28,825 nt of DNA. Source: a virus (Duplodnaviria > Heunggongvirae > Uroviricota > Caudoviricetes). Made by a program: the position numbers and the translations under genes. Every line of letters begins with the position of its first letter. Positions within the stretch are counted from its first letter, which is position 1. The stretch is from IMG/VR virus record IMGVR_UViG_2698536355_000015, positions 1 to 28,825 of that record; one strand, written 5' to 3'. Positions 830-26,768 of this stretch are shown here, piece by piece. The notes beneath the pieces were generated by a model. It worked only from the letters and a program-made list of their open reading frames with translations. It did not search any database and was not told the DNA's origin.

Positions 830-1234
830 TTAGGAGCGAATTTCTTTGCGAAACAAGAGGAATCTTGATGACGCCAAGTTGACAACCATACCGGCTATAC
901 TTCCAGCTGCAACACCAATGATCGGATTTTCAAGGGCTATATTATATGTTGAGATTAGCCAACTATAGAGGCCGTAGTTGACTGAACCTCCACCTAACAT
1001 GAGAACAAAGTATGAGAGAAATTCGTTTTTAGGCTTCATGCATGAGCTTTTATCTTTGAAGGTTATCTTTCTATTAAAAACCCATGTAACGGCCACTGCT
1101 GCAAAAAAGGAAAAGGCTCGAGCTATGTAAGGCCCACAGTATCCAAGCAAAATATAAAGCACTGTGGTATCTACCAGAAAACCGATAGCCCCACTAATTC
1201 CGAAGAAAAAAATCTCTCTCATGATTTTTATCAT
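830..1234 (-). CDS. gtrA: GtrA-like small polytopic membrane protein (putative lipid-linked sugar flippase)
   Basis: About 120-134 aa with four predicted hydrophobic helices, the size and topology of the GtrA family; ATGA start/stop overlap with the upstream GT2 gene; low GC. An alternative start at Met5 is possible. Confidence 0.6.
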   Translation of the reverse strand: MIKIMREIFFFGISGAIGFLVDTTVLYILLGYCGPYIARAFSFFAAVAVTWVFNRKITFKDKSSCMKPKNEFLSYFVLMLGGGSVNYGLYSWLISTYNIALENPIIGVAAGSIAGMVVNLASSRFLLFRKEIRS

Positions 1235-2184
1235 TTATTTTTTCTCATACACGGAAGAGGAATCCCAAGATAGACCAGCCGCTTCATTTCATGCCGCCCC
1301 CTAGTCACATTGTCCAAGACTAAACCACAAACGAATGATAATGCCGCAGCAATCATGATGGAAGCCGCTAAAACTGCAGTTGGGAGTCGGGGAACCAGTC
1401 CATCACGAAGATATTCAGTTAATAGCGGGAACCCCAGTAATAATGACACCATCGCCATGCTCAAAGAACAAATCCCGAAGAAGGCAAATGGGCGTTCACT
1501 TATATATAGTCGACCAATCGTCTTTAGTATTCTCCAGCCATCTCGATATGTCGACAATTTACTGACAGACCCTTCCGGGCGTGCTCCGTAGGCTGTCATT
1601 ATTTCACCATAAGGCATGCGAAGCTCCAGAGCATGCACTGTCAGCTCAGTTTCAATTTCAAAGCCATTGGAAAGCGCAGGGAAAGATTTAGCATATCTAC
1701 GCGTGAAAGCCCGGTACCCTGAAAGCATATCGGTGAAATTCCCACCAAATATTTTAACAACACTTTGGGTAAGTATATAATTACCCCATTGATGTCCGCG
1801 CCTATACGCCTCACCAGCAATTTCCTCTTTCGTTTCTCGACAGCCAACAACCATATCAAGATGGTTATCAAGTAGTTTATCTACAAGACTTCTAACAGCA
1901 CTTGCATCATAAGTTGCATCCCCATCTACCATTACGTAGATATCAGCATCAACGTCGGCAAACATGCGGCGTACAACATTTCCCTTACCAGGAAGTTGCA
2001 CAGATACCACTTTAGCACCAGCATTGGTTGCAACAAGGGCGGTGCGATCCGTCGAATTATTATCAAAAACGTAGATATCAATCTCAGGCATAGCATCGCG
2101 AAATCCACTAACTACTGCTTCGATCGCTGCTTCTTCATTATAGCAAGGAACGATTAATGCCACATGTTGTTCACGATAATACAT
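1231..2184 (-). CDS. gtrB: GT2-family polyprenol-phosphate glycosyltransferase (GtrB/ArnC-like)
   Basis: N-terminal GT2 signature (ALIVPCYNEE...FDNNSTD...VDGDATY) followed by two C-terminal transmembrane helices, about 317 aa, the architecture of GtrB-type bactoprenol glucosyltransferases. Confidence 0.8.
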   Translation of the reverse strand: MYYREQHVALIVPCYNEEAAIEAVVSGFRDAMPEIDIYVFDNNSTDRTALVATNAGAKVVSVQLPGKGNVVRRMFADVDADIYVMVDGDATYDASAVRSLVDKLLDNHLDMVVGCRETKEEIAGEAYRRGHQWGNYILTQSVVKIFGGNFTDMLSGYRAFTRRYAKSFPALSNGFEIETELTVHALELRMPYGEIMTAYGARPEGSVSKLSTYRDGWRILKTIGRLYISERPFAFFGICSLSMAMVSLLLGFPLLTEYLRDGLVPRLPTAVLAASIMIAAALSFVCGLVLDNVTRGRHEMKRLVYLGIPLPCMRKNK

Positions 2185-2200
2185 ATCAACCTCATTTAAA

Positions 2201-3514
2201 TTATTCCTTTGTTTTTATTGACAGCAAAATAAATGGAACGCTTGCCGATGTTGCTAATATTGACCAATATGCGTATCTAAAATCAGATGCAACTCCGACA
2301 AATAGGTATGCCACAAGATACAGAAAACTTGACGTATTCAAGGCAAGAAAAACATCCCTGGCGAAACACTTACGGGATAACAGTCCATAAAGTGAAAATA
2401 TAAAAGAGGTCATAAGCCAGAACCCGGGATGAAAAACGAACGTATTTTTCAATAAGTTGGTCGTCGTTTCAAGCACTCTGAACAACCCAGTTTTTTCGTA
2501 TTTTAACCCTAATGAATTTTCTACAGTAGAATCACCCAATACTGAATTTGGATGCCACAACAATTTCATAAAGTTTTCATAACGATGATTCAGGTATGCA
2601 CCAGGTTCATGATATATAGCAAAAATCCATTTTTTCATTAATGATCCATCACCCCATGAACCAGAGTTTTGTATTTTTTTTAAAACAAAACTACAAGATC
2701 CCCAAACGTAAACATCCCATGCAGCCGCATCATAACAAGTTGAAAGCATCTTATGGCCTTCATCACTATCCCAAGTTTCCTCAAAATAGTCTTTACCTGA
2801 AAAATGAGAAATTCCCCCAAGATCAAAAACTATCAACGATTGATGAACTCGGGATTTTTCAGCATTTAAAAAACCGTAATTGAAGGTTGTTGTGAATAAA
2901 ATGGAGCATGCAGGAAAAAGAAAGAGAATAATCACCCATTTTTTCCATGACTGGAATTTACTTTTATTGAAAAGCAACCATACCAATGGTAACAAACCAA
3001 ACATCGCATTAAATCTTACCATACTTCCAATAAATAGCATGACACCAGCAAGAAGCAATATTTTCTTATTCTGCCCGTTATATTTTGAAATACTTAAGCA
3101 AATAAACCCTACAGCGCAAAGCCAAATAACCGCGTGAAGAACATCCTTCCAAATGTGGCTAAGCGTACCAACTGCAAACGGCATGAAGCCAACAACAATA
3201 ACTGATAACGAAATTTTTTTATATGTTTGCGGAATAGAAAGAGATATAAGTAATAAACCGCCCCAATACAGAAAACATTCAAGCAATAGCATTCCAAATG
3301 CCCCTGGCATCCAGTCATTCGTGATAGCCCAAATGAAACTCATAATCGGTGGATGCCAATCACTGAAATTAAAACTTGTCGCTTGCTGGTATTGATCTAA
3401 CGCATCACTAGTGATTAATCCAGGGAAAAAGGCTCGCAAAGTTATTAGCAACCCAAAAGTGGCTAAGGCAACTTGAGTAAATACTGCTTTTTTACCGAGT
3501 TTTGATGTTAGCAT
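2201..3514 (-). CDS. Polytopic membrane glycosyltransferase, GtrC-like / GT-C-fold candidate (serotype-specific transferase position)
   Basis: 437 aa with many hydrophobic helices in the N-terminal two-thirds and a more polar C-terminal region; sits immediately upstream of the GtrB-like and GtrA-like genes; very low GC. Family assignment rests on context and topology, not on a recognised motif. Confidence 0.5.
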   Translation of the reverse strand: MLTSKLGKKAVFTQVALATFGLLITLRAFFPGLITSDALDQYQQATSFNFSDWHPPIMSFIWAITNDWMPGAFGMLLLECFLYWGGLLLISLSIPQTYKKISLSVIVVGFMPFAVGTLSHIWKDVLHAVIWLCAVGFICLSISKYNGQNKKILLLAGVMLFIGSMVRFNAMFGLLPLVWLLFNKSKFQSWKKWVIILFLFPACSILFTTTFNYGFLNAEKSRVHQSLIVFDLGGISHFSGKDYFEETWDSDEGHKMLSTCYDAAAWDVYVWGSCSFVLKKIQNSGSWGDGSLMKKWIFAIYHEPGAYLNHRYENFMKLLWHPNSVLGDSTVENSLGLKYEKTGLFRVLETTTNLLKNTFVFHPGFWLMTSFIFSLYGLLSRKCFARDVFLALNTSSFLYLVAYLFVGVASDFRYAYWSILATSASVPFILLSIKTKE

Positions 3515-3690
3515 TGAATCATCTAATCTTGAGGAGTGTCATGGGGTTAATACTGTGAATTCTCCCACATGAGATATATTCAGGCAAGCATTTCGATCAG
3601 GGATTTCCTTACAGCAAGAAGCCATTGATGTGGGGATAGCGACGGCGGAGTGGAGAAATACCAAGTGCTGCTAATACGCGTTGATACCTC

Positions 3691-7682: not shown

Positions 7683-8764
7683 GTATTTAACCCCGGTATC
7701 TGCTGGTAGAAGGCGTAGGGCTGAACTTCAAACGCTGCCGGCGGCATCAGTGTCATGCGTGCATGCGTCCCGTTGTCATCACGCATGTAGGTGACATCTG
7801 CCAGCAGCAGCTCGGTATCCGGGAGGCGGAACGCCGGCATATTCACCGGAATAAGGGTATTGGGCTCCCACAGCTTCCCCGCCTCATCCCGCCAGGAGTC
7901 TGTCGTCACAGTCAGCGGCTTCGAGCGGCCATACCGGCGGTTCATTTCCCAGTCGATAGCGCGCTGCGCCTGTTGTGATGCCATCAGAGTGCTTTCAATA
8001 ATGGAAATATGCTTTCGGTAGCGCATACGGGCGGCTTCCGGATCCCTCGCCGTCGCCAGCGTCACGGCGTCATAGGCCGAATCCGGCGAATAGCCTGCTA
8101 TCGGGGAAATACCCATAGAAACACCGACATAGTCAGAGAACCTGTCAGCCATCGATTTACGGTAATAAGCCTGCTCGACGTTCACACCCTCGGCAATACC
8201 GCTGGCGGCACGGCGCGTACCGACGCGGGTCAGCAGCAGGTTGCCGTCAGGCTGGTCGTAATAAAGCAGGGCTGACCACCGGGCCACCCGCTCTATAATC
8301 TCCTGCGGTGACTCCCCCCAGTTAAGGGTGAACTGGGGAACCTTAATCAGATCGCTTACATCCGTCGAGACGCTGATGCCGTAATACGATGCCAGCCGCG
8401 TGGCGATTTCCAGCGCATTACCGCCATTGATGACGTTGTTGGGCCACTCAGCGGAGCAATCCACCAGATCCTGGCATTTGCTTCTCCCCGTCGCGCGCAC
8501 CTCGTGGCGGGAGCGCGATATTGACGGCTCCCAGTCATCCACATAGCCCGTCAGTGTCAGGTCATTCCCGATACGGACGGTACAGGGCATCCCTTCTTCC
8601 ACAAGCTGGCGGTTATCACTGCCGGGAAAATAATCCATCAGACCGAGATCGAAATCAGAGGGAAAACGTTCAATACCGCGGGTCACCCGGACTGAATCCC
8701 AGCCCTCAATAATTTTACCGCCGACCGTCAGCGAGACGGCGTCCTGATCGCTGTCTGCACTCAT
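7679..8764 (-). CDS. Mu gpP-like tail/baseplate hub protein
   Basis: 361 aa directly after the N-like gene, as in Mu-like tail modules. Confidence 0.6.
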   Translation of the reverse strand: MSADSDQDAVSLTVGGKIIEGWDSVRVTRGIERFPSDFDLGLMDYFPGSDNRQLVEEGMPCTVRIGNDLTLTGYVDDWEPSISRSRHEVRATGRSKCQDLVDCSAEWPNNVINGGNALEIATRLASYYGISVSTDVSDLIKVPQFTLNWGESPQEIIERVARWSALLYYDQPDGNLLLTRVGTRRAASGIAEGVNVEQAYYRKSMADRFSDYVGVSMGISPIAGYSPDSAYDAVTLATARDPEAARMRYRKHISIIESTLMASQQAQRAIDWEMNRRYGRSKPLTVTTDSWRDEAGKLWEPNTLIPVNMPAFRLPDTELLLADVTYMRDDNGTHARMTLMPPAAFEVQPYAFYQQIPGLNT

Positions 8765-10161
8765 TTTCTCAGTACCTTCATGGTTACCGGCATAAACGCC
8801 GGATGCGGAACGCGCGCTTCCTGCACCAGTTCATCCGCACGGGTGGCATCCTGATACAGCCGGTTAGCCAGCGTCAGCGCCGGAAGGGGCTGAGCCAGCG
8901 TGACCTGAATCAGTTCGCTCAGTCCGGATGCGCGGTCGCTCATTGTGGCCAGGAAGGAAGACCTGATGGCAAGCAGGCTGCCATACATACCGTCCTCCGC
9001 ACGGTCACCGGCCAGCACCAGCGCCGTATCCAGCTGAACGGAAACCCGCTGCGTTATCGCTTCAGCCTCATCGCGGCTGGACGGTCTGGCATCGGCGGCC
9101 GCGCGGGTCATGGCCCCCGAGCACAACACAACGATCAGCGTGTTCATGGTCGCGGATATCGCTTTGCTGCTGTCGGATTGCTGGCATTCCGTGCTGATGA
9201 CATTAGCCAGTTTTTCCAGTGCTGAGATCCGGTCATTCACGCTGCCGGCACTGTCAAGAATGGCATTCACAACATCGGCGACACCCTGCACAAAGTCATC
9301 CGGGTTGGTTGAGTTATTCAGATGATCCACGGTATCGGTGATGTTTTTCCGGTCCATCACCGACTGCGCGGTCACCTGGTCGGCAAGCGCCTGAGTGTCC
9401 TCCACGTCGGCAGTCGACGTATTGCCTGAAACAGCGGAAGAGCTACCACCGACTGGCCCCTTGCTGTAACGGCCATATTGCGTATTTCCAAACGTGGAAT
9501 TCAGGACGTTACTGAGGTTTGTGACTTCGCTGATGGTGCTGTCCACCATATTCGTCCAGAACGTGACGGTACCTTTAATGGTGTTGATCGCCTGCGTAAC
9601 ACCGCGGATTTCACCCTTTATCCTGGCGAGGGTACTGGCGACCGTCGTGCTCACCAGTTTCAGGTAGTTGGTGTTTACAGTATCGCCTGCGGTGGTACTG
9701 TCCGTGACGGCGAATACTTTGAGACCTGACTCAATTGCCATCAGGGTGAACTCAAACACTCGGCCATTTTCTGTCGATCCGGAAATACGCAGACCGTTTT
9801 CAGGAATAGAAACCGTTAATTCGCCGAGCGTCGGGTGGATCAGGGTACCGCTTCCCTTTGCTTCACAGGCGGCGATCAGCGACTGACGCTGGGTAATGGC
9901 ATCGCCGCCGCCGTAGACCTGGCTGTTCTGGATAAGGAACCCGCGAATAATAAACCGCCGGGTGGCGCGGCCGATATCTTCAATCCACGCGGTATCACGC
10001 CAGGGGTACTCATGCACGGCCTGACGACGGCCGTGGCTGCCCTCTTCTGCCACAACGGCAAACGGCACGCCGCGAAACGAGCTGGCACGCAACTGGCTCT
10101 GCCAGTCATCGCTGGCACCACCACCCATCAGGGACGTTATTGCATCCTGAATAATTGACAT
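8761..10161 (-). CDS. DNA circularisation protein N-like (Mu gpN-like tail protein)
   Basis: About 466 aa following the tape measure gene. The track ORF begins at a TTG inside the upstream terminator hairpin (10191); the ATG at 10159-10161 (MSIIQDAITSL...) has a GGAGG Shine-Dalgarno 7 nt upstream and is the likely start. Confidence 0.6.
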   Translation of the reverse strand: MSIIQDAITSLMGGGASDDWQSQLRASSFRGVPFAVVAEEGSHGRRQAVHEYPWRDTAWIEDIGRATRRFIIRGFLIQNSQVYGGGDAITQRQSLIAACEAKGSGTLIHPTLGELTVSIPENGLRISGSTENGRVFEFTLMAIESGLKVFAVTDSTTAGDTVNTNYLKLVSTTVASTLARIKGEIRGVTQAINTIKGTVTFWTNMVDSTISEVTNLSNVLNSTFGNTQYGRYSKGPVGGSSSAVSGNTSTADVEDTQALADQVTAQSVMDRKNITDTVDHLNNSTNPDDFVQGVADVVNAILDSAGSVNDRISALEKLANVISTECQQSDSSKAISATMNTLIVVLCSGAMTRAAADARPSSRDEAEAITQRVSVQLDTALVLAGDRAEDGMYGSLLAIRSSFLATMSDRASGLSELIQVTLAQPLPALTLANRLYQDATRADELVQEARVPHPAFMPVTMKVLRK

Positions 10162-10180
10162 CACGCCTCCAGAAAGAAAA

Positions 10181-10203
10181 AAAACCGCCAATTTGGCGGT
10201 TTT
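10181..10203. terminator. Bidirectional rho-independent terminator after the AT-rich tail-module insertion
   Basis: Perfect palindrome CCGCCAAATTTGGCGG flanked by an A8 run upstream and T4 downstream, giving a hairpin plus U-tract in either orientation; sits between the stop of the 10226..10627 gene and the start of the N-like gene. Confidence 0.6.
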
Positions 10204-10225
10204 GATTTCTATTGAACAACGATAA

Positions 10226-10627
10226 TTAAGGGTGAACTGAAAACCCGTCTGGCGATTTAGTAACGATCAGAGTCCTACCATCGGTAGTTTTTACTACTGC
10301 CAGATTCTCTGTAACATTCATCACTCCAGAAACATTTATACCATTATTTTCCAGATAATCATGAGTAACATTTATTGAGCCATAACATAAGTCATTATTA
10401 GTATAGAAGCCTTGGTATTCCTGCTTGCATTTATTTATCGACAAAAACTCATCCCTAAGAGAAAAAAACGCCATAACAAATGTGATAGCTAAAACAACTG
10501 AAATAACTCTGGCGATAGCTCTCCTTTTACTTTTCTCCTTCCTAAATGAAAGAAAAAGACAGATAAAGAATAAAATCAATAAAGCAATGCAACCTTGATA
10601 AATGCTCATAATCCACCAATCCACCAT
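10226..10627 (-). CDS. Small membrane protein of unknown function, AT-rich insertion in tail module (candidate superinfection-exclusion or host-interaction gene)
   Basis: ORF in a markedly AT-rich island between the tape measure and N-like genes; two N-terminal hydrophobic helices then a polar C-terminal domain of about 70 aa; followed by its own terminator. No recognisable homologue. Confidence 0.5.
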   Translation of the reverse strand: MVDWWIMSIYQGCIALLILFFICLFLSFRKEKSKRRAIARVISVVLAITFVMAFFSLRDEFLSINKCKQEYQGFYTNNDLCYGSINVTHDYLENNGINVSGVMNVTENLAVVKTTDGRTLIVTKSPDGFSVHP

Positions 10628-10714
10628 TAATAATATTCCGTTACCCAGATGACTGGGACAGTTTGCACTTCCACATCGATTTTGTCATCAAAAACCACTT
10701 ATCCAAACCCGGTA

Positions 10715-12529
10715 TTAATAATTCATGGCGGTGGCTATTCTGCCATTATCCTCAACGTTATAAGTTTTTTTCTCTCCCTTATCATTTACCAGAGTTATCT
10801 CCAACTTTAACTTTTGATCAGACATTGCCTCTTTCAGGGATCGGGCAAGATTGTCTGCCATAGCATTACCTACTCCACTAGGTGAACCAGTGATAATTGA
10901 AGTTCCCGGTCCATTGTCAGTACCAGAGGAATGATAGATACTTTGTTCTGTAAAGTTACTTTCTTGTTGGCCTTCATTATTGATTATCCTCTGGTAATGT
11001 CCCAGAACGGCCCCAGGATAGGCCTGATTTTGCTGTCCCCACCGACTGGTATCGTAACCACCGTTGTAATAGCGGAGCGCCAGCGGAACATTTCCGCCGG
11101 ACCTTTTCAGGTTCTCAGATAAGATTTGTGCCCCAGCCATAATGTTCTGCCGCGGATCGGTCCAGTCCGTTATCCCGGTCGACCGGAAATTTGACGGCAT
11201 AATCTGCATTAACCCTCGGGCGTCAGCACTACTAACTGCATATGGATTCCCGTTAGACTCCTGGGTCATTATGGCCTTCAGCAGGCGGGGATCCACACCA
11301 TATTGCTTGCCGGCTTCATTGAGTAGATCGTCATACTGTCCGCCCTGGTTATACGGTACATAGTTATTGCCGCCGACAGCAGGTCGGGTAATGGCAGCCA
11401 TATCGTCCTGCAGCTGGTTCGCCGTATCCGTCGCCCGGTAATTCGCATCGTAGCGTTTGCTCACAGCATCCGTCATAAACCCGGCATCCACCATCCCGCG
11501 CTCGCTGCGGGGCAGGCTGTTATAGAGTTCCTTGTCACCCTGAATACGGCGCAGTTTGGCCGCGTCCGCGCTGCTGATAAACCCCAGCGCATGCGACAGG
11601 CCGGTGAAATCGCCGTTGGTAAACAGGTCTGTCACGCCCTCGAGGCCGTCTTTCACCGACCCGTCGGAAAGCAGGCCTTTGAACAGCTTATTCTGCGATC
11701 GTTGCTTCAGTCCGTCCCATGAGGCGCCCAGTTCGTTCATCGTGCCGTTGATATCGGACAGTTGTTTATTAAGTTCGGGATCGACCGTCAGCCCGAACGT
11801 ATCGGATTTTGCCAGCAGGGTTTTCATGCGTTCACCTTCACGCATCAGCGCCAGCATTTCAGGGGTAAAACCCATCGCATCCGCGACAGATTTTTGCTGC
11901 TCGGGTCGCAACGTCGGGAACACACGCGCGATCTCTTCCATGGTTTTGAGCGTATCGACTGAACCATCCTTGTTTTTCTGGATCTGCACACCAATCTGCG
12001 ATAACGCGCCAAGTACCTGACCGTTTGCCCCGCTGGCCGCTTCCTTCAGCGTTTTTGCCATCCCTTCAATCGATGCATTTGCGCTTTCGCTGTCAGCCCC
12101 CAGAATACGCATGGCGCCAGCGAGCCTGGTAAAGTCATCAACCCGCATACCGGCGTTTTTCGATGCTGTATCCAGGTTGTACGCCTCCCGGGATGCTTCC
12201 CGAAAACCGTAGGCAACCTGCTGAAGGCCATATCCTGCTGCCCCAACAGCACCGAGCGCGCCCAGCTTGCCGGAGATTTCCCCCACCATTTTTAGCGGGG
12301 GAACCATATCACCGATGAACTGCACGTTATCCCGCGCGCTCTTCGACATATTCTCCAGGCGTGAAATAAAACCGTTCAGCCCGTCGACCGTCTCCTGGCC
12401 CCCTAACTGGAGCCCTTCTTTGGTTTTATTCAGCTTCGGCTCAAGATCGCGGATAGCTTCATCAATCCGGGTTATCGCGTCACTGACCTGATCGCTGGCC
12501 ACCAGCTCAAAATCAAAAGAATTACTCAT
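10715..12529 (-). CDS. Tail tape measure protein with lytic transglycosylase (SLT) domain
   Basis: 604 aa, largely Ala/Gly/Leu-rich and helical, directly downstream of the frameshifted chaperone pair; contains a family-1 lytic transglycosylase motif (...AIMTQESNGNPYAVSSADARGLMQIMPSNF...). Confidence 0.75.
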   Translation of the reverse strand: MSNSFDFELVASDQVSDAITRIDEAIRDLEPKLNKTKEGLQLGGQETVDGLNGFISRLENMSKSARDNVQFIGDMVPPLKMVGEISGKLGALGAVGAAGYGLQQVAYGFREASREAYNLDTASKNAGMRVDDFTRLAGAMRILGADSESANASIEGMAKTLKEAASGANGQVLGALSQIGVQIQKNKDGSVDTLKTMEEIARVFPTLRPEQQKSVADAMGFTPEMLALMREGERMKTLLAKSDTFGLTVDPELNKQLSDINGTMNELGASWDGLKQRSQNKLFKGLLSDGSVKDGLEGVTDLFTNGDFTGLSHALGFISSADAAKLRRIQGDKELYNSLPRSERGMVDAGFMTDAVSKRYDANYRATDTANQLQDDMAAITRPAVGGNNYVPYNQGGQYDDLLNEAGKQYGVDPRLLKAIMTQESNGNPYAVSSADARGLMQIMPSNFRSTGITDWTDPRQNIMAGAQILSENLKRSGGNVPLALRYYNGGYDTSRWGQQNQAYPGAVLGHYQRIINNEGQQESNFTEQSIYHSSGTDNGPGTSIITGSPSGVGNAMADNLARSLKEAMSDQKLKLEITLVNDKGEKKTYNVEDNGRIATAMNY

Positions 12530-12713
12530 CGTTGTCAGGGTTCCTGAGTTTGTTAATCCGGGAGGCCTGTGTCACCCACCAGGTCAGCCGGGCGCGGGTC
12601 ATTCCCCACGCCCGGTCCTCAGACCAGCGGAAATAGAAGGTGATATCAGCGGCGGTTTCCTGCCAGACGGTCAGGGCTTCCAGGTCAAAAAACCGAGCAG
12701 GTACTCCTCGCAT
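12522..12713 (-). CDS. -1 frame extension of the tail assembly chaperone (G/GT-type fusion product)
   Basis: ORF in the -1 frame overlapping the 3' end of the chaperone ORF and ending 8 nt into the tape measure gene; joined to the upstream frame through a T_TTT_TTG slippery heptamer. Confidence 0.5.
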   Translation of the reverse strand: MRGVPARFFDLEALTVWQETAADITFYFRWSEDRAWGMTRARLTWWVTQASRINKLRNPDNDE

Positions 12714-12949
12714 TTTCGAAAATCGATGAAATCCATCGGCTGCAGCACGGATTCACGCGTGCCGGACACCAGCGCAATAAGCAGGCGCATCGCCGCCAGT
12801 GAGGTGGATGCGGCTTGTTTTTCGTAAAACTGCTCTGCCTGGCTGAGCGTCGGGGCTTTCAGCTCCAGCTGCTCATAGCGGGTTTTCTGCGGCGCATCTT
12901 CAAGCGGTACCGCCAGCAAAATGATTTTTACACGTTCAATTTCTGCCAT
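12671..12949 (-). CDS. Tail assembly chaperone (tape measure chaperone)
   Basis: 92-aa ORF between the tail tube and tape measure genes with an overlapping -1 frame extension, the conserved arrangement of tail chaperones. Confidence 0.6.
   Translation of the reverse strand: MAEIERVKIILLAVPLEDAPQKTRYEQLELKAPTLSQAEQFYEKQAASTSLAAMRLLIALVSGTRESVLQPMDFIDFRKCEEYLLGFLTWKP
12686..12692 (-). other. Programmed -1 ribosomal frameshift slippery heptamer (T TTT TTG)
   Basis: Minus-strand GGT TTT TTG in the chaperone frame; a -1 slip gives TTT TTT then GAC CTG GAA..., which is the reading frame of the 12522..12713 extension ORF. Confidence 0.55.
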
Positions 12950-12950
12950 C

Positions 12951-13322
12951 TTAGTTCTCCGTTACTTCCCGGCCTTCCCAGCGAACATCAAATACAGCAT
13001 CTTCGCTTTCCACTTCCTGGACGTTTACCGTCCAGAGCTGCTGACCGATAATGGTTTTCCCATTCGCCAGTTCCGCCACAATGTTGACATTGGTTTGCCC
13101 ATTGAAACCTTTGACGTTCGTCCCGCCGCTGTCACGCAGCCGGGCCGAGATATACGGCGCCACAGGTTTTTCTTTGTACCCGTGTACGCCGTCCATCCCC
13201 GTCAGGGTGGTGCGGTTGACGGTGGAAACCTGGTATTTAAATGAGCCCTCCACCATCACTGTTACACCGTTGACGGTGACATACGCGGTTCCCGCCAGGC
13301 GGTTAGAAGTATCACCTGCCAT
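12951..13322 (-). CDS. Tail tube protein (Mu gpM-like)
   Basis: 123 aa immediately downstream of the sheath gene. Confidence 0.65.
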   Translation of the reverse strand: MAGDTSNRLAGTAYVTVNGVTVMVEGSFKYQVSTVNRTTLTGMDGVHGYKEKPVAPYISARLRDSGGTNVKGFNGQTNVNIVAELANGKTIIGQQLWTVNVQEVESEDAVFDVRWEGREVTEN

Positions 13323-13325
13323 CGT

Positions 13326-14828
13326 TTATGCTCCTGTTGATTCAGCCCGCGTACGGAACTGGTTGAGCAGCGCAAAAATGCGCAGCTGGTTCATGAGGGT
13401 TCCCGGCCACAGCACATCGACGCGGTTCGGGTTTTTGGCGTTCTGCTCAACAATGATGTTTTTGGCAAAGGCCGCGGCATCCTGCGCATACCCGTTCCAC
13501 ACCAGGTTGCCATACTCCGCAATCTGATCTGCTTTGATAATGTTCGGGGTGACAATCGCGGCGCCGGGGGCAAAACGGGTACCGTCAGCCGCCAGCTTCA
13601 TCCGGCCAAACTTACTGGTTACCGCCGTGCGCAGGTAACGGGTCACAAACATCAGACTGAAGAGCGTTTCCACCTCGAGGTAGCTGCCATCCTCGTCGCC
13701 GTAGCTGTTCTTCTGGTAAGTGGTGATCAGGTTCTCAATACGCACCGTGCCGTCATCATCCACCGTAAACGTCGAAATGCCGCTGTACAGCAGGTTGTTA
13801 CGCTCGGTCAGTTCAAAGCGGTCCTGCAACTCCGGCGCAAGAACCCCCAGGATAGCCAGCGACTGCACCGGGCGCCCCGGATCATTGCGCAGGCTGACCG
13901 CCGCCGCGCCTGTGTACCCGGCAGACCACACCCAGGAGGGCGACGGTGATTTATTCACGCCCATCAGCGTTTCATGCTGGTTGTTTCGCACCTCGCCTTT
14001 CGTTCCGAGCTGCGCATAGGTTCCGGTAGTCGTACCAAAGGAATGACCGTACAACTGCTTATCCCACGCCCAGCGGCCGCCGACATCTGAAAGGAACGCC
14101 TTCATCGCATCCAGTGATGCGGTGTCGTCATAGGGGTTAACGATAAAGTCGAACGTCCGGTCCTGCAGGTTGGCCAGCGCGCCAGTGATATCCGGCGCAC
14201 TGGCACCACCGCTCATGGCTGTAATGGTCAGTTCCAGGCCTGCAGGTGTCACCTCCCCACCAGGTGATCGGAGGTAGTTCAGGCGAACATCAATACCATT
14301 GCCAATGGCGCCAAGGTTTTTCGCTGTCAGGGTTACTGTATCAGTGGCCGCACTGGCGGTTACCGGCAGCGTGGTTTTTGCGTTAATCGCCGCCGCCAGA
14401 GAGGTGGCAATCGCGGCCGCCGTATCCGTTGCCACAACGGTCAGTTGAATACGCTCGCCGGCGATGTACAGCGAAATCACCCCGGTTGCCGTCGGTACGC
14501 TGGTTACTTTAATGGTGCCGGTGGCGGAAACCATGGAGTCAGGGTCTTCCTCCAGCGGCAGGATCCAGACTTCGGCGGCGGTATCATTGTTCTGATACGC
14601 CGTCATCATGGCCTGCAGGATACTGCCCTTTCCGGCCAGATCGCCGACAGTATCAGCAGAAGAGACGCGTTCAGGAATACCGGCGGTTGCCGAACCGGAA
14701 GTCAGCATCCCACCGATAAGCAGGGTGCGCTGCGTGGCTGTGGCGTTATTCGCCATCGAGTTATCAAACTCAACGAAGAACAACCCCACCCGCAGGTTAT
14801 CGGGGACTCGGGCGAAGGGTACGGTCAT
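13326..14828 (-). CDS. Contractile tail sheath protein (Mu gpL-like)
   Basis: 500 aa, the expected sheath size, followed by tube, chaperone and tape measure genes. Confidence 0.8.
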   Translation of the reverse strand: MTVPFARVPDNLRVGLFFVEFDNSMANNATATQRTLLIGGMLTSGSATAGIPERVSSADTVGDLAGKGSILQAMMTAYQNNDTAAEVWILPLEEDPDSMVSATGTIKVTSVPTATGVISLYIAGERIQLTVVATDTAAAIATSLAAAINAKTTLPVTASAATDTVTLTAKNLGAIGNGIDVRLNYLRSPGGEVTPAGLELTITAMSGGASAPDITGALANLQDRTFDFIVNPYDDTASLDAMKAFLSDVGGRWAWDKQLYGHSFGTTTGTYAQLGTKGEVRNNQHETLMGVNKSPSPSWVWSAGYTGAAAVSLRNDPGRPVQSLAILGVLAPELQDRFELTERNNLLYSGISTFTVDDDGTVRIENLITTYQKNSYGDEDGSYLEVETLFSLMFVTRYLRTAVTSKFGRMKLAADGTRFAPGAAIVTPNIIKADQIAEYGNLVWNGYAQDAAAFAKNIIVEQNAKNPNRVDVLWPGTLMNQLRIFALLNQFRTRAESTGA

Positions 14829-25801: not shown

Positions 25802-26281
25802 TTATTTGAGGCACTGCGTGGTGATGTATTCCTGCAGGCCGCTCACTTGTTTGGTGATAACGCTAATTCGCTCTCTGAGGGTGAAATAATCCCGTTGAGC
25901 GGCGTCAGTAAGTCGGGGGCCGGTTGCATCATCCACGCCGGTGGCGCCGGAGGTATTACCCTTGGGGCAGGTGGCGTTGATGTGCAGCCCACACTTGCCA
26001 GAACGAACACACTGCTGAAGAGCATCAAGCTGCTTTTTCGCATCAGCTAACTCCTTTGTGTATTTGGCATCCAGCGCAGCGACGTCGCGCTGCCGGGTCT
26101 GCATGTCGGTTATGGTGGCGTTCGCCAGCGTCAGGGCGGATGTGGCTTTATCGCGCTGGTCTTTGTAGGTGATGGCGTTGTCGCGGTAGTGGTTCACTGC
26201 CAGTAACAGCACGCCGATAACTGCAAATACCAGAATCGGCAGCCATAGCTTTTTCAGCGCTGCGAAGATGGCTTCACTCAT
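25802..26281 (-). CDS. Rz: Inner-membrane spanin Rz (i-spanin)
   Basis: Strong identity to lambda Rz ([13 protein letters not shown]...[24 protein letters not shown]...RDYFTLRER); N-terminal transmembrane helix. Confidence 0.85.
25843..26043 (-). CDS. Rz1: Outer-membrane lipoprotein spanin Rz1 (o-spanin), embedded in Rz in the +1 frame
   Basis: Lipobox (LASVGC) and Pro-rich segment [14 protein letters not shown]...[11 protein letters not shown], matching lambda Rz1 (PPPPPAWIMQPPPD...[11 protein letters not shown]); lies entirely within Rz. Confidence 0.8.
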
Positions 26282-26763
26282 GGTTTAGACTCGCTCACCT
26301 GACCGCCAGCGGCTTTGAATACCGCGATCAGATTATCCGCTTTGTGCTCAAACTGGCCGTAGCCCGCACCGGGGAGTGAGGCCCATATATTGCTGCAGCG
26401 GTCGATAGCCTGTCGAATGTCTCCGCTGTCGATTAACGGCAGCGCGCCACGCTCCTTAATTTGCTGAAGCGCCACTGCGTCCTGGCTGGCCGGGGAGAAG
26501 TCTTTCAGACCAAGCTGCACCCGGTATGCATCCCACCATTTGGACAGCAGCTGGTAGCGGCCGGCAGCCGTTGATTTCAGTGTTGGGCTAAGCGTGACCA
26601 GCTTTCGGGGGTGATCTGAATAATCGGTAAACAGGGAACCGCCGACAATAACGTCGTATCCGTGGTTATTGGTCTTCTGCCTGCCGTTATCGGTTCCTTC
26701 AGACCAGGCCAGCATATCGAGAAATGCTTTTCGTTGAGGACTCATCGTCTGCATCAGCGCCAC
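26278..26763 (-). CDS. R: Endolysin, lambda R-like lytic transglycosylase
   Basis: Near-identical over most of its length to lambda R ([47 protein letters not shown]...[22 protein letters not shown]). Confidence 0.9.
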
Positions 26764-26768
26764 CTTTT

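Follow-up and report, generated by a model that had tools for sequence, protein, structure and literature searches.

Results

The small gene described here lies in the tail operon of a 28,825-nucleotide stretch of viral DNA, which we refer to as a whole as the window. It belongs to a lineage of temperate enterobacterial phages in which a lambda-like head and lysis module is joined to a Mu-like, contractile tail module; the lambdoid reading of the tail in the first-pass annotation was therefore dropped. A complete holin/Rz lysis cassette was found at 25802-27432 (PF16931, PF05449, PF03245), and the same prophage carries gtrA/gtrB, a classic conversion module, at 830-2184. All the genes around the small ORF are on the minus strand. 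The features of the locus are the following, in the direction of transcription, with the basis for each call in brackets:

10715-12529, minus: tape-measure protein (TMP) gene, 604 aa, with an internal SLT lytic-transglycosylase domain (PHROG 2276, E=6e-107; PF01464 SLT, E=5e-27)
10189-10978, minus: exchangeable cassette (segment without similarity to the nearest relative, L021, by blastn)
10715-10978, minus: last ~88 codons of the TMP gene, inside the swapped AT-rich cassette
10660-10688, minus: candidate weak promoter, a -35-like ATGACA (10683-10688), a 17-nt spacer and a -10-like CAAACT (10660-10665)
10226-10609, minus: small membrane-protein gene, probably 127 aa from the ATG at 10609 (ORF list and translation; homologue starts; dN/dS; GC)
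10457-10603, minus: two predicted transmembrane helices, at about residues 3-21 and 33-51 in the 127-aa numbering (Kyte-Doolittle hydropathy, charge count)
10229-10456, minus: predicted periplasmic C-terminal domain, residues 52-127 (invariant alignment columns, AF2, dN/dS)
10177-10203, minus: intrinsic-terminator-like hairpin and T8 (terminator scan; fold energy; comparison of junctions)
10166-10170, minus: ribosome-binding site of N, GGAGG (sequence read directly)
8761-10170, minus: Mu N-type DNA-circulation/baseplate gene with its ribosome-binding site (CDS 8761-10161, ATG at 10161, 466 aa; PF07157, E=3e-28; PHROG 184, E=1e-82)

The location first proposed for the gene, between a tape-measure and an N-like gene, was confirmed by the PHROG 2276 and SLT matches on one side and PF07157 on the other. 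The small-ORF region has the lowest GC content of the window (mean 0.536, s.d. 0.072), with a 400-nt minimum of 0.33 at 10326. The AT-rich island had been estimated at ~500 bp, which proved too short: it spans ~790 bp (10189-10978) and reaches into the final ~88 codons of the TMP gene, whose last 300 nt have a GC content of 0.41 compared to 0.55 upstream. The composition of the small ORF is foreign to its flanks, as the suggested GC and codon comparison with the adjacent tail genes made clear (GC 0.34 and GC3 0.31, against 0.53-0.58 and 0.58-0.68 in the neighbours), and this contrast is repeated in all the loci of the family.

The limits of the cassette were set by comparison with L021, whose N protein is 97% identical to that of the window. 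The blastn alignment runs at 92% identity down to position 10979 and at 96% from 10188 onward, with no similarity in between, and these limits match the GC trough. At exactly the same boundaries L021 contains a different cargo of 687 nt encoding an unrelated secreted protein. The cassette in the window takes in the C-terminal segment of TMP (88 codons), followed by 105 nt of spacer, the small ORF and the stem of the hairpin. A C-terminal TMP motif, LEIT...GE...GR...M, is conserved among the relatives. Our search for near-identical DNA in GenBank phages and in complete E. coli genomes yielded no match.

Only 33-36 nt separate TMP from N in phiNP, a viable temperate myovirus (PMC6456863), and in BZS1, in agreement with the view that the gene is inserted into an otherwise contiguous junction. 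E. coli K-12 is a plating host of phiNP. In a tally of 80 IMG/VR viral contigs, ~39 junctions were empty and ~35 occupied, and the GC content of the occupied gaps was 0.28-0.52 (mostly 0.33-0.43) against 0.40-0.57 in their flanks. The cargo comprises at least 10 unrelated families, most of them with a signal peptide or transmembrane helices, and elsewhere it includes varied secreted proteins, an SGNH hydrolase and a DUF4431 protein; in another locus, L011, the small ORF has shrunk to a 38-aa remnant. Judging from these comparisons, the small ORF is dispensable and is swapped as a cassette between near-identical backbones. Set against the Juhala/Hendrix definition of a moron as given in PMC3594210, the insert is extra DNA absent from close relatives (phiNP, BZS1, ~39 of the 80 contigs, and L021 with its other cargo), its GC content is unlike that of the surrounding genes, and it has a terminator, which is swapped with the cassette although empty junctions carry an equivalent one. 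We are thus highly confident that the region is an exchangeable accessory-gene cassette in a TMP-N hot spot, and a moron in the broad sense. The literature that we searched contained no description of the TMP-N slot, which is no proof that none exists.

The hairpin lies upstream of the ribosome-binding site of N and is separated from it by 6 nt. Its core on the minus strand is CCGCCAAATTGGCGG (10185-10199), followed by T8 at 10177-10184, and consists of a 6-bp stem and a 3-nt loop, with A/T pairs that extend the stem to 10181-10203. A perfect 16-bp palindrome, CCGCCAAATTTGGCGG, had been reported at this site but is absent from the sequence, which contains instead the imperfect 15-nt palindrome CCGCCAATTTGGCGG (10185-10199); its flanking runs on the plus strand are as described, A8 at 10177-10184 and T4 at 10200-10203. 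With a fold energy of -16.8 to -18.9 kcal/mol and a folding z of -3.5, the element has the stem-loop and U-tract of an intrinsic terminator (AAAACCGCCAAATTGGCGGTTTT and then further Ts, T8 in total after the GC core). Moreover, the structure is kept through sequence change: an equivalent hairpin is present in 15/15 compared junctions, the empty ones included, with at least 8 different stems, each with a T-run, as read directly rather than by a covariation score. In the junctions of the lineage, the GC-rich hairpin and its T-run lie 8-16 nt ahead of the N ribosome-binding site. These properties predict terminator activity, strong on the minus strand with its T8; the proposed activity in both directions was sustained only in part, as the plus strand is weak (T4) and has nothing there to terminate. 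Being common to the junctions in general, the hairpin is uninformative as to autonomous expression, and a terminator beside the inserted gene, offered earlier as a sign of a moron, is not diagnostic when the uninterrupted junction already has one. An integron-attC-like recombination site was considered and rejected, because the hairpins are plain GC stems followed by T-runs, and some cargo genes have none. A search of Rfam with the region 9800-11200 returned only sub-threshold matches to amino-acid operon leaders (attenuators), reflecting the terminator hairpin.

Autonomous expression is the defining feature of a moron. In the 220 nt upstream of the ORF we found no near-consensus sigma-70 promoter in any of the 13 family loci, where ~3.4 would be expected by chance. 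The genes of the operon are otherwise tightly packed, yet 55-110 nt of non-coding spacer lie ahead of the ORF, and the pattern ATGACA-17-CA(A/C)ACT is conserved in eight loci (the window, L001, L002, L005, L033, L044, L046 and L101), in which the 17-nt spacer between the hexamers keeps its length while its sequence diverges. The ATGACA-17-CAAACT site does not pass the consensus scan, and this weak conserved motif is possibly the ORF's own promoter. Of the earlier description of an independently expressed moron, the insertion, the foreign GC content, the dispensability and the exchange hold, while for the independent expression there is the weak motif and no consensus promoter. The lack of a consensus promoter in the 13 loci implies that the gene may depend entirely on transcription of the late tail operon.

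The ORF can be read from an ATG at 10627, giving the 133 aa first proposed (10226-10627, minus; stop codon at 10226-10228). Its homologues begin with MS(V/I)YQG, which corresponds to the second ATG, at 10609. The upstream codons for DWWIM are conserved as nucleotides, at the position of the ribosome-binding region, and relatives have no in-frame ATG there. The true start is thus probably 10609 and the product 127 aa long.

This protein belongs to a rare family: a set of 5.8 billion proteins yielded 6 clusters of it, and exhaustive HMMER gave 11 representatives. Every member with recovered context lies directly downstream of TMP, including 7 look-ups made independently of N, and the adjacency is kept even at 22-34% identity and where further genes follow (L018-L020). 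A profile search with a 7-sequence family alignment added one new locus, likewise in the TMP-N slot, and we found no member outside a phage tail context. Homologous cassettes are present in public strains of Salmonella (GCA_050507695.1), Citrobacter freundii (GCA_905338045.2) and Klebsiella (GCA_014168915.1). The ORF had no match by tblastn in GenBank phages, only sub-threshold matches in Pfam and NCBIfam, driven by the transmembrane helices, nothing in PADLOC and no sequence relative in the PDB; PHROG gave no consistent assignment over 20 family members. We therefore regard the family, which is without database match, as previously undescribed.

The motif C-x6-FY-x4-LC is invariant in alignments of 16 and 20 sequences. 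The dN/dS is ~0.1 (range 0.08-0.22 over the whole protein, in a comparison with saturated synonymous sites) and drops to 0.05-0.10 in the periplasmic domain, with the least-diverged pair as the sole exception, which makes this domain the most constrained part of the protein. By these measures the ORF is a genuine gene and evolves under purifying selection. In the close subfamily selection is likewise purifying and not diversifying; this absence of an arms-race signature counts against a role in exclusion.

The two N-terminal transmembrane helices and polar C-terminal domain proposed at first were recovered in the topology prediction, both by hydropathy and by the AF2 model, which has a mean pLDDT of 80.9 and helices at 3-21 and 28-58. 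The loop joining the helices, FRKEKSKRRAIAR, contains 7 K/R and is predicted to be cytoplasmic; its positive charge implies that the C-terminus is outside, and the predicted topology in the inner membrane is N-out, loop-in, C-out. The polar C-terminal domain, ~75 aa long, is modelled as a small beta-rich fold with strands at 73-76, 93-98, 103-108, 113-119 and 122-126, and contains the family-invariant residues C61-x6-F68-Y69-x4-L74-C75. This domain, predicted to be exposed to the periplasm, is probably disulfide-bonded. We consider it likely that the small-ORF protein is located in the envelope.

Discussion

We regard the locus as a good, if ordinary, representative of the phage morons, whose likeliest role here, tentatively, is superinfection exclusion at the DNA-entry step; we infer this by analogy with HK97 gp15 and T4 Imm. 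In the proposed mechanism the lysogen would produce small amounts of the protein, possibly from the conserved weak ATGACA-17-CAAACT motif, and the transcript of the gene would be terminated at the hairpin. The inner-membrane protein would then prevent incoming related phages from delivering their genomes, acting when their ejected tape-measure protein makes contact with the inner membrane or passes through it. In the lytic cycle, expression of N and the baseplate genes would require the late transcript to continue past the hairpin. The full statement, cassette and exclusion mechanism together, has in our judgement slightly less than an even chance of being correct.

The strongest competitor, which we hold to be possible though rather unlikely, is that the gene is an accessory of the late operon without a promoter of its own, transcribed together with sheath, tube and TMP as far as the hairpin. 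The protein would act late in the infected cell and not in the lysogen, for instance protecting the cell from superinfection or lysis-from-without in the latent period, or modulating the timing of lysis. The absence of a consensus promoter in the 13 loci is consistent with this, as are the position of the gene on the tail-gene strand upstream of the junction hairpin in every locus and its place directly after TMP throughout the family. What such a gene would leave unaccounted for is the 55-110 nt non-coding spacer ahead of the ORF in a tightly packed operon, and the conservation of the ATGACA-17-CA(A/C)ACT hexamers around a diverged spacer. Moreover, morons expressed from prophages typically show such persistently foreign GC content and cargo directed to the envelope (PMC3594210).

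A lysogenic-conversion factor unrelated to phage exclusion, that is, an envelope protein altering host physiology such as stress tolerance, permeability or host interaction, is unlikely in our view. A predicted envelope protein of no known family would suit such a role, the same slot also holds secreted proteins, the SGNH hydrolase and the DUF4431 protein, and the prophage already carries the gtrA/gtrB conversion module. Nevertheless, a function directed at the host can hardly explain a strict adjacency to TMP maintained over 22-34% identity, in a family that was not found outside this phage tail context.

We also considered that the unit of exchange could be a matched injection/immunity module, in which the C-terminal domain of TMP is paired with a cognate inner-membrane blocker of that TMP type. 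The C-terminal domain would engage the inner membrane during ejection, in a way that may be likened to pore-forming colicins and their immunity proteins. We give little credence to such a module. If the module were real, swapping a cassette would change in one step the exclusion proteins that the phage evades and the competitors that its lysogen excludes, and the slot would amount to a general collection of exclusion proteins that act at the envelope and are aimed at tape-measure proteins. The pairing was rejected when the TMP C-termini were grouped by single-linkage clustering of a small sample, as one cluster is found alongside five types of cargo as well as empty slots. That a single TMP C-terminal type goes with several cargos and empty slots also counts against exclusion itself.

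It is very unlikely that the protein, anchored in the membrane, inhibits the SLT domain of TMP from the periplasm in a manner comparable to T4 Spackle acting on the gp5 lysozyme. The adjacent TMP does carry an SLT domain and the periplasmic domain has an invariant Cys-bounded loop, but members also lie beside TMPs without a detectable SLT (L018/L019), and no inhibitor family, Spackle and Ivy included, was found to resemble the protein. A holin or lysis role was rejected, given the complete lysis cassette elsewhere in the window (25802-27432), the lack of a match of the ORF to any holin family and the implied C-out topology.

Homologues at the same position in distant relatives, the result named at the outset as fatal to a moron if they proved to be conserved core tail genes, do exist and could point to a core component of tail assembly or ejection. 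They are accessory: a core Mu-type tail gene would be present in all functional relatives, while this one has no copy in the viable phiNP, in BZS1, in L021 or in many others and is reduced to the 38-aa remnant in L011, and a membrane-embedded protein could not enter a tail assembled in the cytoplasm. The phages with an empty slot effectively refute a core role, which we consider highly improbable. Finally, a chance frame in AT-rich spacer DNA or a non-coding RNA, to which the lack of a match in any family database might point, has practically no chance of being correct and was rejected on the conservation pattern (dN/dS ~0.1 with saturated synonymous sites, a motif invariant over 20 sequences), together with the confident AF2 model and Rfam matches limited to sub-threshold terminator look-alikes.

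Few envelope proteins that stop phage DNA entry are known and their mechanism is poorly understood; direct binding of TMP by T4 Imm has been reported only recently, in a 2026 preprint. The locus adds a rare protein family strictly linked to the tape-measure gene and a defined hot spot in a widespread enterobacterial prophage group, whose at least ten unrelated families of mostly secreted or membrane proteins constitute a compact candidate set for new exclusion or lysogenic-conversion functions. If the gene were expressed only late, or without an exclusion phenotype, it would be merely one more accessory ORF of unknown function.

In neither sequence nor structure did we find homology of the small-ORF protein to a characterised DNA-entry exclusion protein (HK97 gp15, T4 Imm or P22 SieA), and the resemblances discussed below are analogies. 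Superinfection exclusion by HK97 gp15 was reportedly described by Cumby and colleagues in 2012. This moron, a neighbour of the TMP gene, codes for an inner-membrane protein that blocks DNA entry in a tail-dependent manner (PMC3594210), leaving the receptor untouched. Both are small inner-membrane proteins (by prediction in our case) encoded by dispensable insertions of deviant GC content that adjoin the TMP gene in the tail operon. They are unrelated in sequence: gp15 is YebO-like and has bacterial homologues, whereas members of our family combine two transmembrane helices with a periplasmic domain of 75 aa, and none is known outside phages. In addition, gp15 lies upstream of TMP in a siphovirus and the small ORF downstream of it in a Mu-type myovirus tail, and expression from the prophage, which has been demonstrated for gp15, is a proposal for the small ORF.

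T4 Imm, which binds the tape-measure protein directly (bioRxiv 10.64898/2026.03.06.709160), and which we compared along with Sp, is a small inner-membrane protein of a contractile-tailed phage that prevents genome translocation. It shows no homology to our protein (PHROGs and Pfam were negative), it is the product of an early gene of a virulent phage that is not linked to TMP, and its functional core lies inside the membrane, whereas the conserved part of the small-ORF protein is predicted to be periplasmic. The comparison with cor and lom made at first turned out to be a looser analogy than those with HK97 gp15 and T4 Imm. P22 SieA, lambda lom and phi80-N15 cor are prophage envelope proteins with a phenotype in the lysogen, some encoded in or next to tail clusters, but no homology to them was detected. 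Lom resides in the outer membrane and the target of Cor is the outer-membrane receptor FhuA (PMC3594210), in contrast to the predicted inner-membrane location of the small-ORF protein.

As for the slot, it resembles the general hot spots of temperate phages in that a fixed junction of core genes holds unrelated cargo of foreign composition. It differs from them in lying inside a tail morphogenesis operon, in having the TMP C-terminus and a conserved terminator hairpin as its borders, and in its cargo of mainly envelope-targeted proteins instead of cytoplasmic defence systems.

Gene order around the small membrane-protein gene

The gene under study lies between the genes for the tape-measure protein (TMP) and the Mu N-type DNA-circulation/baseplate protein (N), in a part of the window where the minus strand carries every gene. 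The features of the window are:

13326-14828, minus, tail sheath
12951-13322, minus, tail tube
12671-12949, minus, tail assembly chaperone
10715-12529, minus, TMP of 604 aa with an internal SLT lytic-transglycosylase domain
10226-10627, minus, small ORF
10177-10203, minus, hairpin with T-run
8761-10161, minus, Mu N-type DNA-circulation protein
after N in transcription order, minus, baseplate genes like Mu P/gp44, gp45, gp46, gp47 and gp48
25802-27432, lambda-like lysis cassette with two holins and Rz
1231-2184, minus, gtrB (GT2)
830-1234, minus, gtrA (PF04138)
within 830-3514, minus, 437-aa ORF at the position of a serotype-specific gtrC, no Pfam match

Given its sheath, tube, chaperone, TMP, N and Mu P/gp44-gp48-like gene content, the tail is Mu-like and contractile. 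The head is lambda-like: a gpA-type terminase is present in the window itself, and the S49 protease and the gpD-like and gpE-like capsid genes were assigned through synteny with the related locus L001. The 142-nt gap from the chaperone ORF (12671-12949) to the TMP start is spanned by an overlapping 63-aa ORF (12522-12713, minus), a layout (12522-12949, minus) typical of programmed frameshift extension of tail assembly chaperones. At its low-coordinate end the window has a 128-aa S24 peptidase-like ORF that resembles UmuD or a repressor (365-751, minus), and a 301-aa ORF without a Pfam match occupies an AT-rich stretch upstream of the holin genes (27920-28825, plus).

The small ORF belongs to a rare protein family

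The small ORF is a genuine gene, and its family is both rare and unannotated. Only six clusters came out of a word-indexed search of 5.8 billion proteins, one 98% and five 61-63% identical, from prophages of Salmonella, Klebsiella and Citrobacter. An HMMER profile search run exhaustively over 1.84 billion representatives gave 11 representatives at E<=0.001, and a second profile search gave 18 clusters. The first-pass annotation had described a 133-aa protein; the reading frame is present, but the product is probably 127 aa long, because all homologues start at the second ATG, from which the window protein begins MSIYQG... The six codons upstream of this ATG are kept as DNA, at the position of the ribosome-binding region, and the relatives have no in-frame ATG there.

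All members are ~130 aa long and share two hydrophobic helices with a strongly basic loop between them, followed by a domain in which a C-x6-FY-x4-L-C motif is invariant and whose C-terminus is rich in beta structure. Our AF2 model (20 sequences, mean pLDDT 80.9) combined a TM hairpin (helices at residues 3-21 and 28-58) with a small beta domain. Since the inter-helix loop carries 7 K/R, the positive-inside rule predicts it to be cytoplasmic, which would place the C-terminal domain and the conserved Cys pair it carries in the periplasm.

Among close homologues dN/dS was 0.08-0.22, with synonymous sites near saturation relative to the window copy. It was 0.05-0.10 in the C-terminal domain (in all but the least-diverged pair) versus 0.12-0.25 in the TM region; judged by these ratios, the C-terminal domain is under the stronger constraint. 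By sequence comparison, the family is also more diverged than any neighbouring tail protein: against L001 the small ORF is 61-63% identical while the tail proteins are 75-96% identical, and against distant loci the corresponding values are 22-34% for the family member, 30-36% for TMP and 43-74% for the other tail proteins.

An exchangeable cassette at the TMP-N junction

Only 33-36 nt separate the TMP stop from the N start in two phage isolates, Citrobacter phiNP and Serratia vB_SspM_BZS1, which bears out the earlier proposal that the gene was inserted at a normally contiguous junction. phiNP is a viable temperate myovirus (PMC6456863), and since its junction lacks the gene, the gene is dispensable.

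Of the relatives found, the IMG/VR contig L021 is the nearest (N 97% identical). It is 92% identical to the window down to 10979 and 96% identical from 10188 onward, with no similarity between, where it carries a 687-nt cargo for an unrelated secreted protein of ~190 aa. These breaks define the exchanged unit as 10189-10978, comprising the last 88 codons of the TMP gene, the spacer, the ORF and the hairpin stem. The left boundary (10979) lies at the start of a hypervariable Ser/Gly/Thr-rich TMP linker (10805-11030) that runs from the SLT domain to a conserved C-terminal segment of ~45 aa, and in which nucleotide identity to relatives falls to 0.33-0.56 before recovering.

The ORF region is the GC minimum of the entire window, with a 400-nt low of 0.33 at 10326 versus a mean of 0.536 (sd 0.072). 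The AT-rich island first described as ~500 bp long is there, but the GC trough measures ~790 bp and takes in the 3' end of the TMP gene, and its edges match the cassette boundaries. The family gene keeps a GC of 0.27-0.37 and a GC3 of 0.21-0.39 in every background. The sole stretch of comparable AT-richness in the window (~830-3650) is a gtr-type O-antigen modification module (830-3514, minus; GC down to 0.34), a classic lysogenic-conversion locus that lies downstream of the tail-fibre genes in the same prophage.

The TMP-N junction is a hot spot. In five species-representative genomes with an N 85-87% identical, its contents differ: signal-peptide proteins of 169 and 188 aa, a two-TM protein (48/82 aa) and remnants, one of the 169-aa type and one, 38 aa long, of the present family. 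Among 80 IMG/VR junctions (our own tally, not de-replicated) ~39 were empty, defined as a gap <=110 nt, ~35 were occupied, five of the 80 holding the present family, and 6 were unclear. Occupied gaps had a GC of 0.28-0.52, mostly 0.33-0.43, versus 0.40-0.57 in the flanks. Clustering outlined at least 10 unrelated cargo families, the majority with a signal peptide or TM helices; an SGNH-type hydrolase also occurs, as do a few cytoplasmic cargos of several genes. Individual loci hold a DUF4431 protein (L019, 6412-7059), an SGNH/GDSL-like hydrolase (L070, 2952-3443), a two-TM protein with a zinc-ribbon motif (L059, 2869-3402) and multi-gene cytoplasmic cargos of ~2 kb (L051 and L068); PADLOC gave no match for any of these cargos that were tested. 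The most distant relatives (N ~35% identical) lack the hairpin, and their TMP and N genes overlap as ATGA.

When context was looked up from the protein alone, without reference to N, the gene lay directly downstream of TMP in 7/7 cases, even for Yersinia and metagenomic members that are only 22-34% identical; five IMG/VR loci and L101 have it in the same position. Where the slot is shared, it is again the family member that directly follows TMP. In L020 (5547-8660) four more genes come after it: a repressor-like gene (HTH plus S24 peptidase) read from the opposite strand, a 57-aa ORF, and one gene each for a Bro-N and an ORF6N protein. The L020 slot thus looks like a regulatory module within the tail operon, with a second hairpin after the small ORF. 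The L018 and L019 slots have one additional ORF beside the family member. Insertion sequences break tail genes in prophages with a homologous cassette (L002, 8444-10999; L005, 3500-5985): N is interrupted by a DDE_3 transposase in a Klebsiella prophage and TMP by an IS66 element in a Citrobacter freundii prophage. Both are probably defective, yet the small ORF is intact.

Hairpin and promoter evidence

Within the tail operon, just ahead of the N ribosome-binding site, lies the palindrome CCGCCAATTTGGCGG (15 nt, 10185-10199), with a 6-bp stem and a 3-nt loop rather than the perfect 16 bp reported at first; A/T pairs extend it to 10181-10203. On the minus (coding) strand it is followed by T8 and folds at ~-17 kcal/mol (z = -3.5 versus shuffles). 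In 15/15 junctions compared, the empty ones of phiNP and BZS1 included, a GC-rich hairpin (-12 to -21 kcal/mol) with a T-run after it stops 8-16 nt short of the N ribosome-binding site, and pairing is preserved through at least 8 different stem sequences. Most empty IMG/VR junctions have a fold of about -11 to -15 kcal/mol. The stem is swapped along with the cassette, one type being common to L021 and L014 and another to the window, L001, L002 and L005. The hairpin is a property of the junction, not of the insertion: the cassette does have a terminator, but empty junctions have an equivalent, so it is no sign of autonomy.

No promoter would fit in the space from the hairpin to N, from which we infer that the baseplate genes are expressed by read-through of this conserved terminator-like element. 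The hairpin may tune the tail:baseplate protein ratio, attenuate baseplate expression, insulate the baseplate genes in the lysogen or affect RNA stability.

From the TMP stop to the ORF, a consensus scan found no sigma-70-like site, and a separate scan of our own over the 220 nt upstream of 13 family members also found none, versus ~3.4 expected from composition-matched shuffles. Both the window (10683-10688 and 10660-10665) and seven relatives of two subfamilies keep an ATGACA-17 nt-CA(A/C)ACT motif, while the 17-nt spacer has diverged, as a weak promoter would be expected to behave; we consider the motif a candidate only. The non-coding spacer of 55-110 nt ahead of the ORF is unusual for this tightly packed operon.

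Possible function and comparison with known systems

An accessory, moron-type cassette is the best-supported reading. The original observation was essentially right, its details being corrected here: insertion, composition, dispensability and exchange uphold the moron interpretation, autonomous expression is only a possibility, and the terminator argument falls away. The locus belongs to a known class, the hot-spot accessory cassettes of prophages, and encodes an undescribed protein family.

As to function, we tentatively suggest, at somewhat less than even confidence, interference with genome delivery by incoming phages. The product would reside in the inner membrane, expose its conserved domain to the periplasm and act where the ejected TMP meets that membrane. 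The predicted envelope location, dispensability, cassette behaviour, envelope-directed other cargos, strict TMP linkage and two precedents point to this reading.

Its main rival, an accessory gene expressed only late, agrees with the absence of a recognisable promoter and seems rather unlikely; a host-directed conversion factor we regard as unlikely. A matched pairing of TMP C-terminus and cargo, like a colicin and its immunity protein, is attractive, as the TMP C-terminus moves with the cassette, but a single C-terminal type was found with five cargo types and with empty slots. The co-transfer may simply reflect the places where homology permits recombination, which are the conserved SLT region at one end and the N start at the other. 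An inhibitor of the SLT domain is very improbable, as family members also lie beside TMPs without one.

Interference with genome delivery has precedents in T4 Imm, which binds TMP directly (bioRxiv 10.64898/2026.03.06.709160), and in HK97 gp15, which blocks DNA entry in a tail-dependent manner (PMC3594210). The latter is an inner-membrane protein encoded by a moron adjacent to the TMP gene, and the present gene is likewise TMP-adjacent, with a product predicted to reside in the inner membrane.
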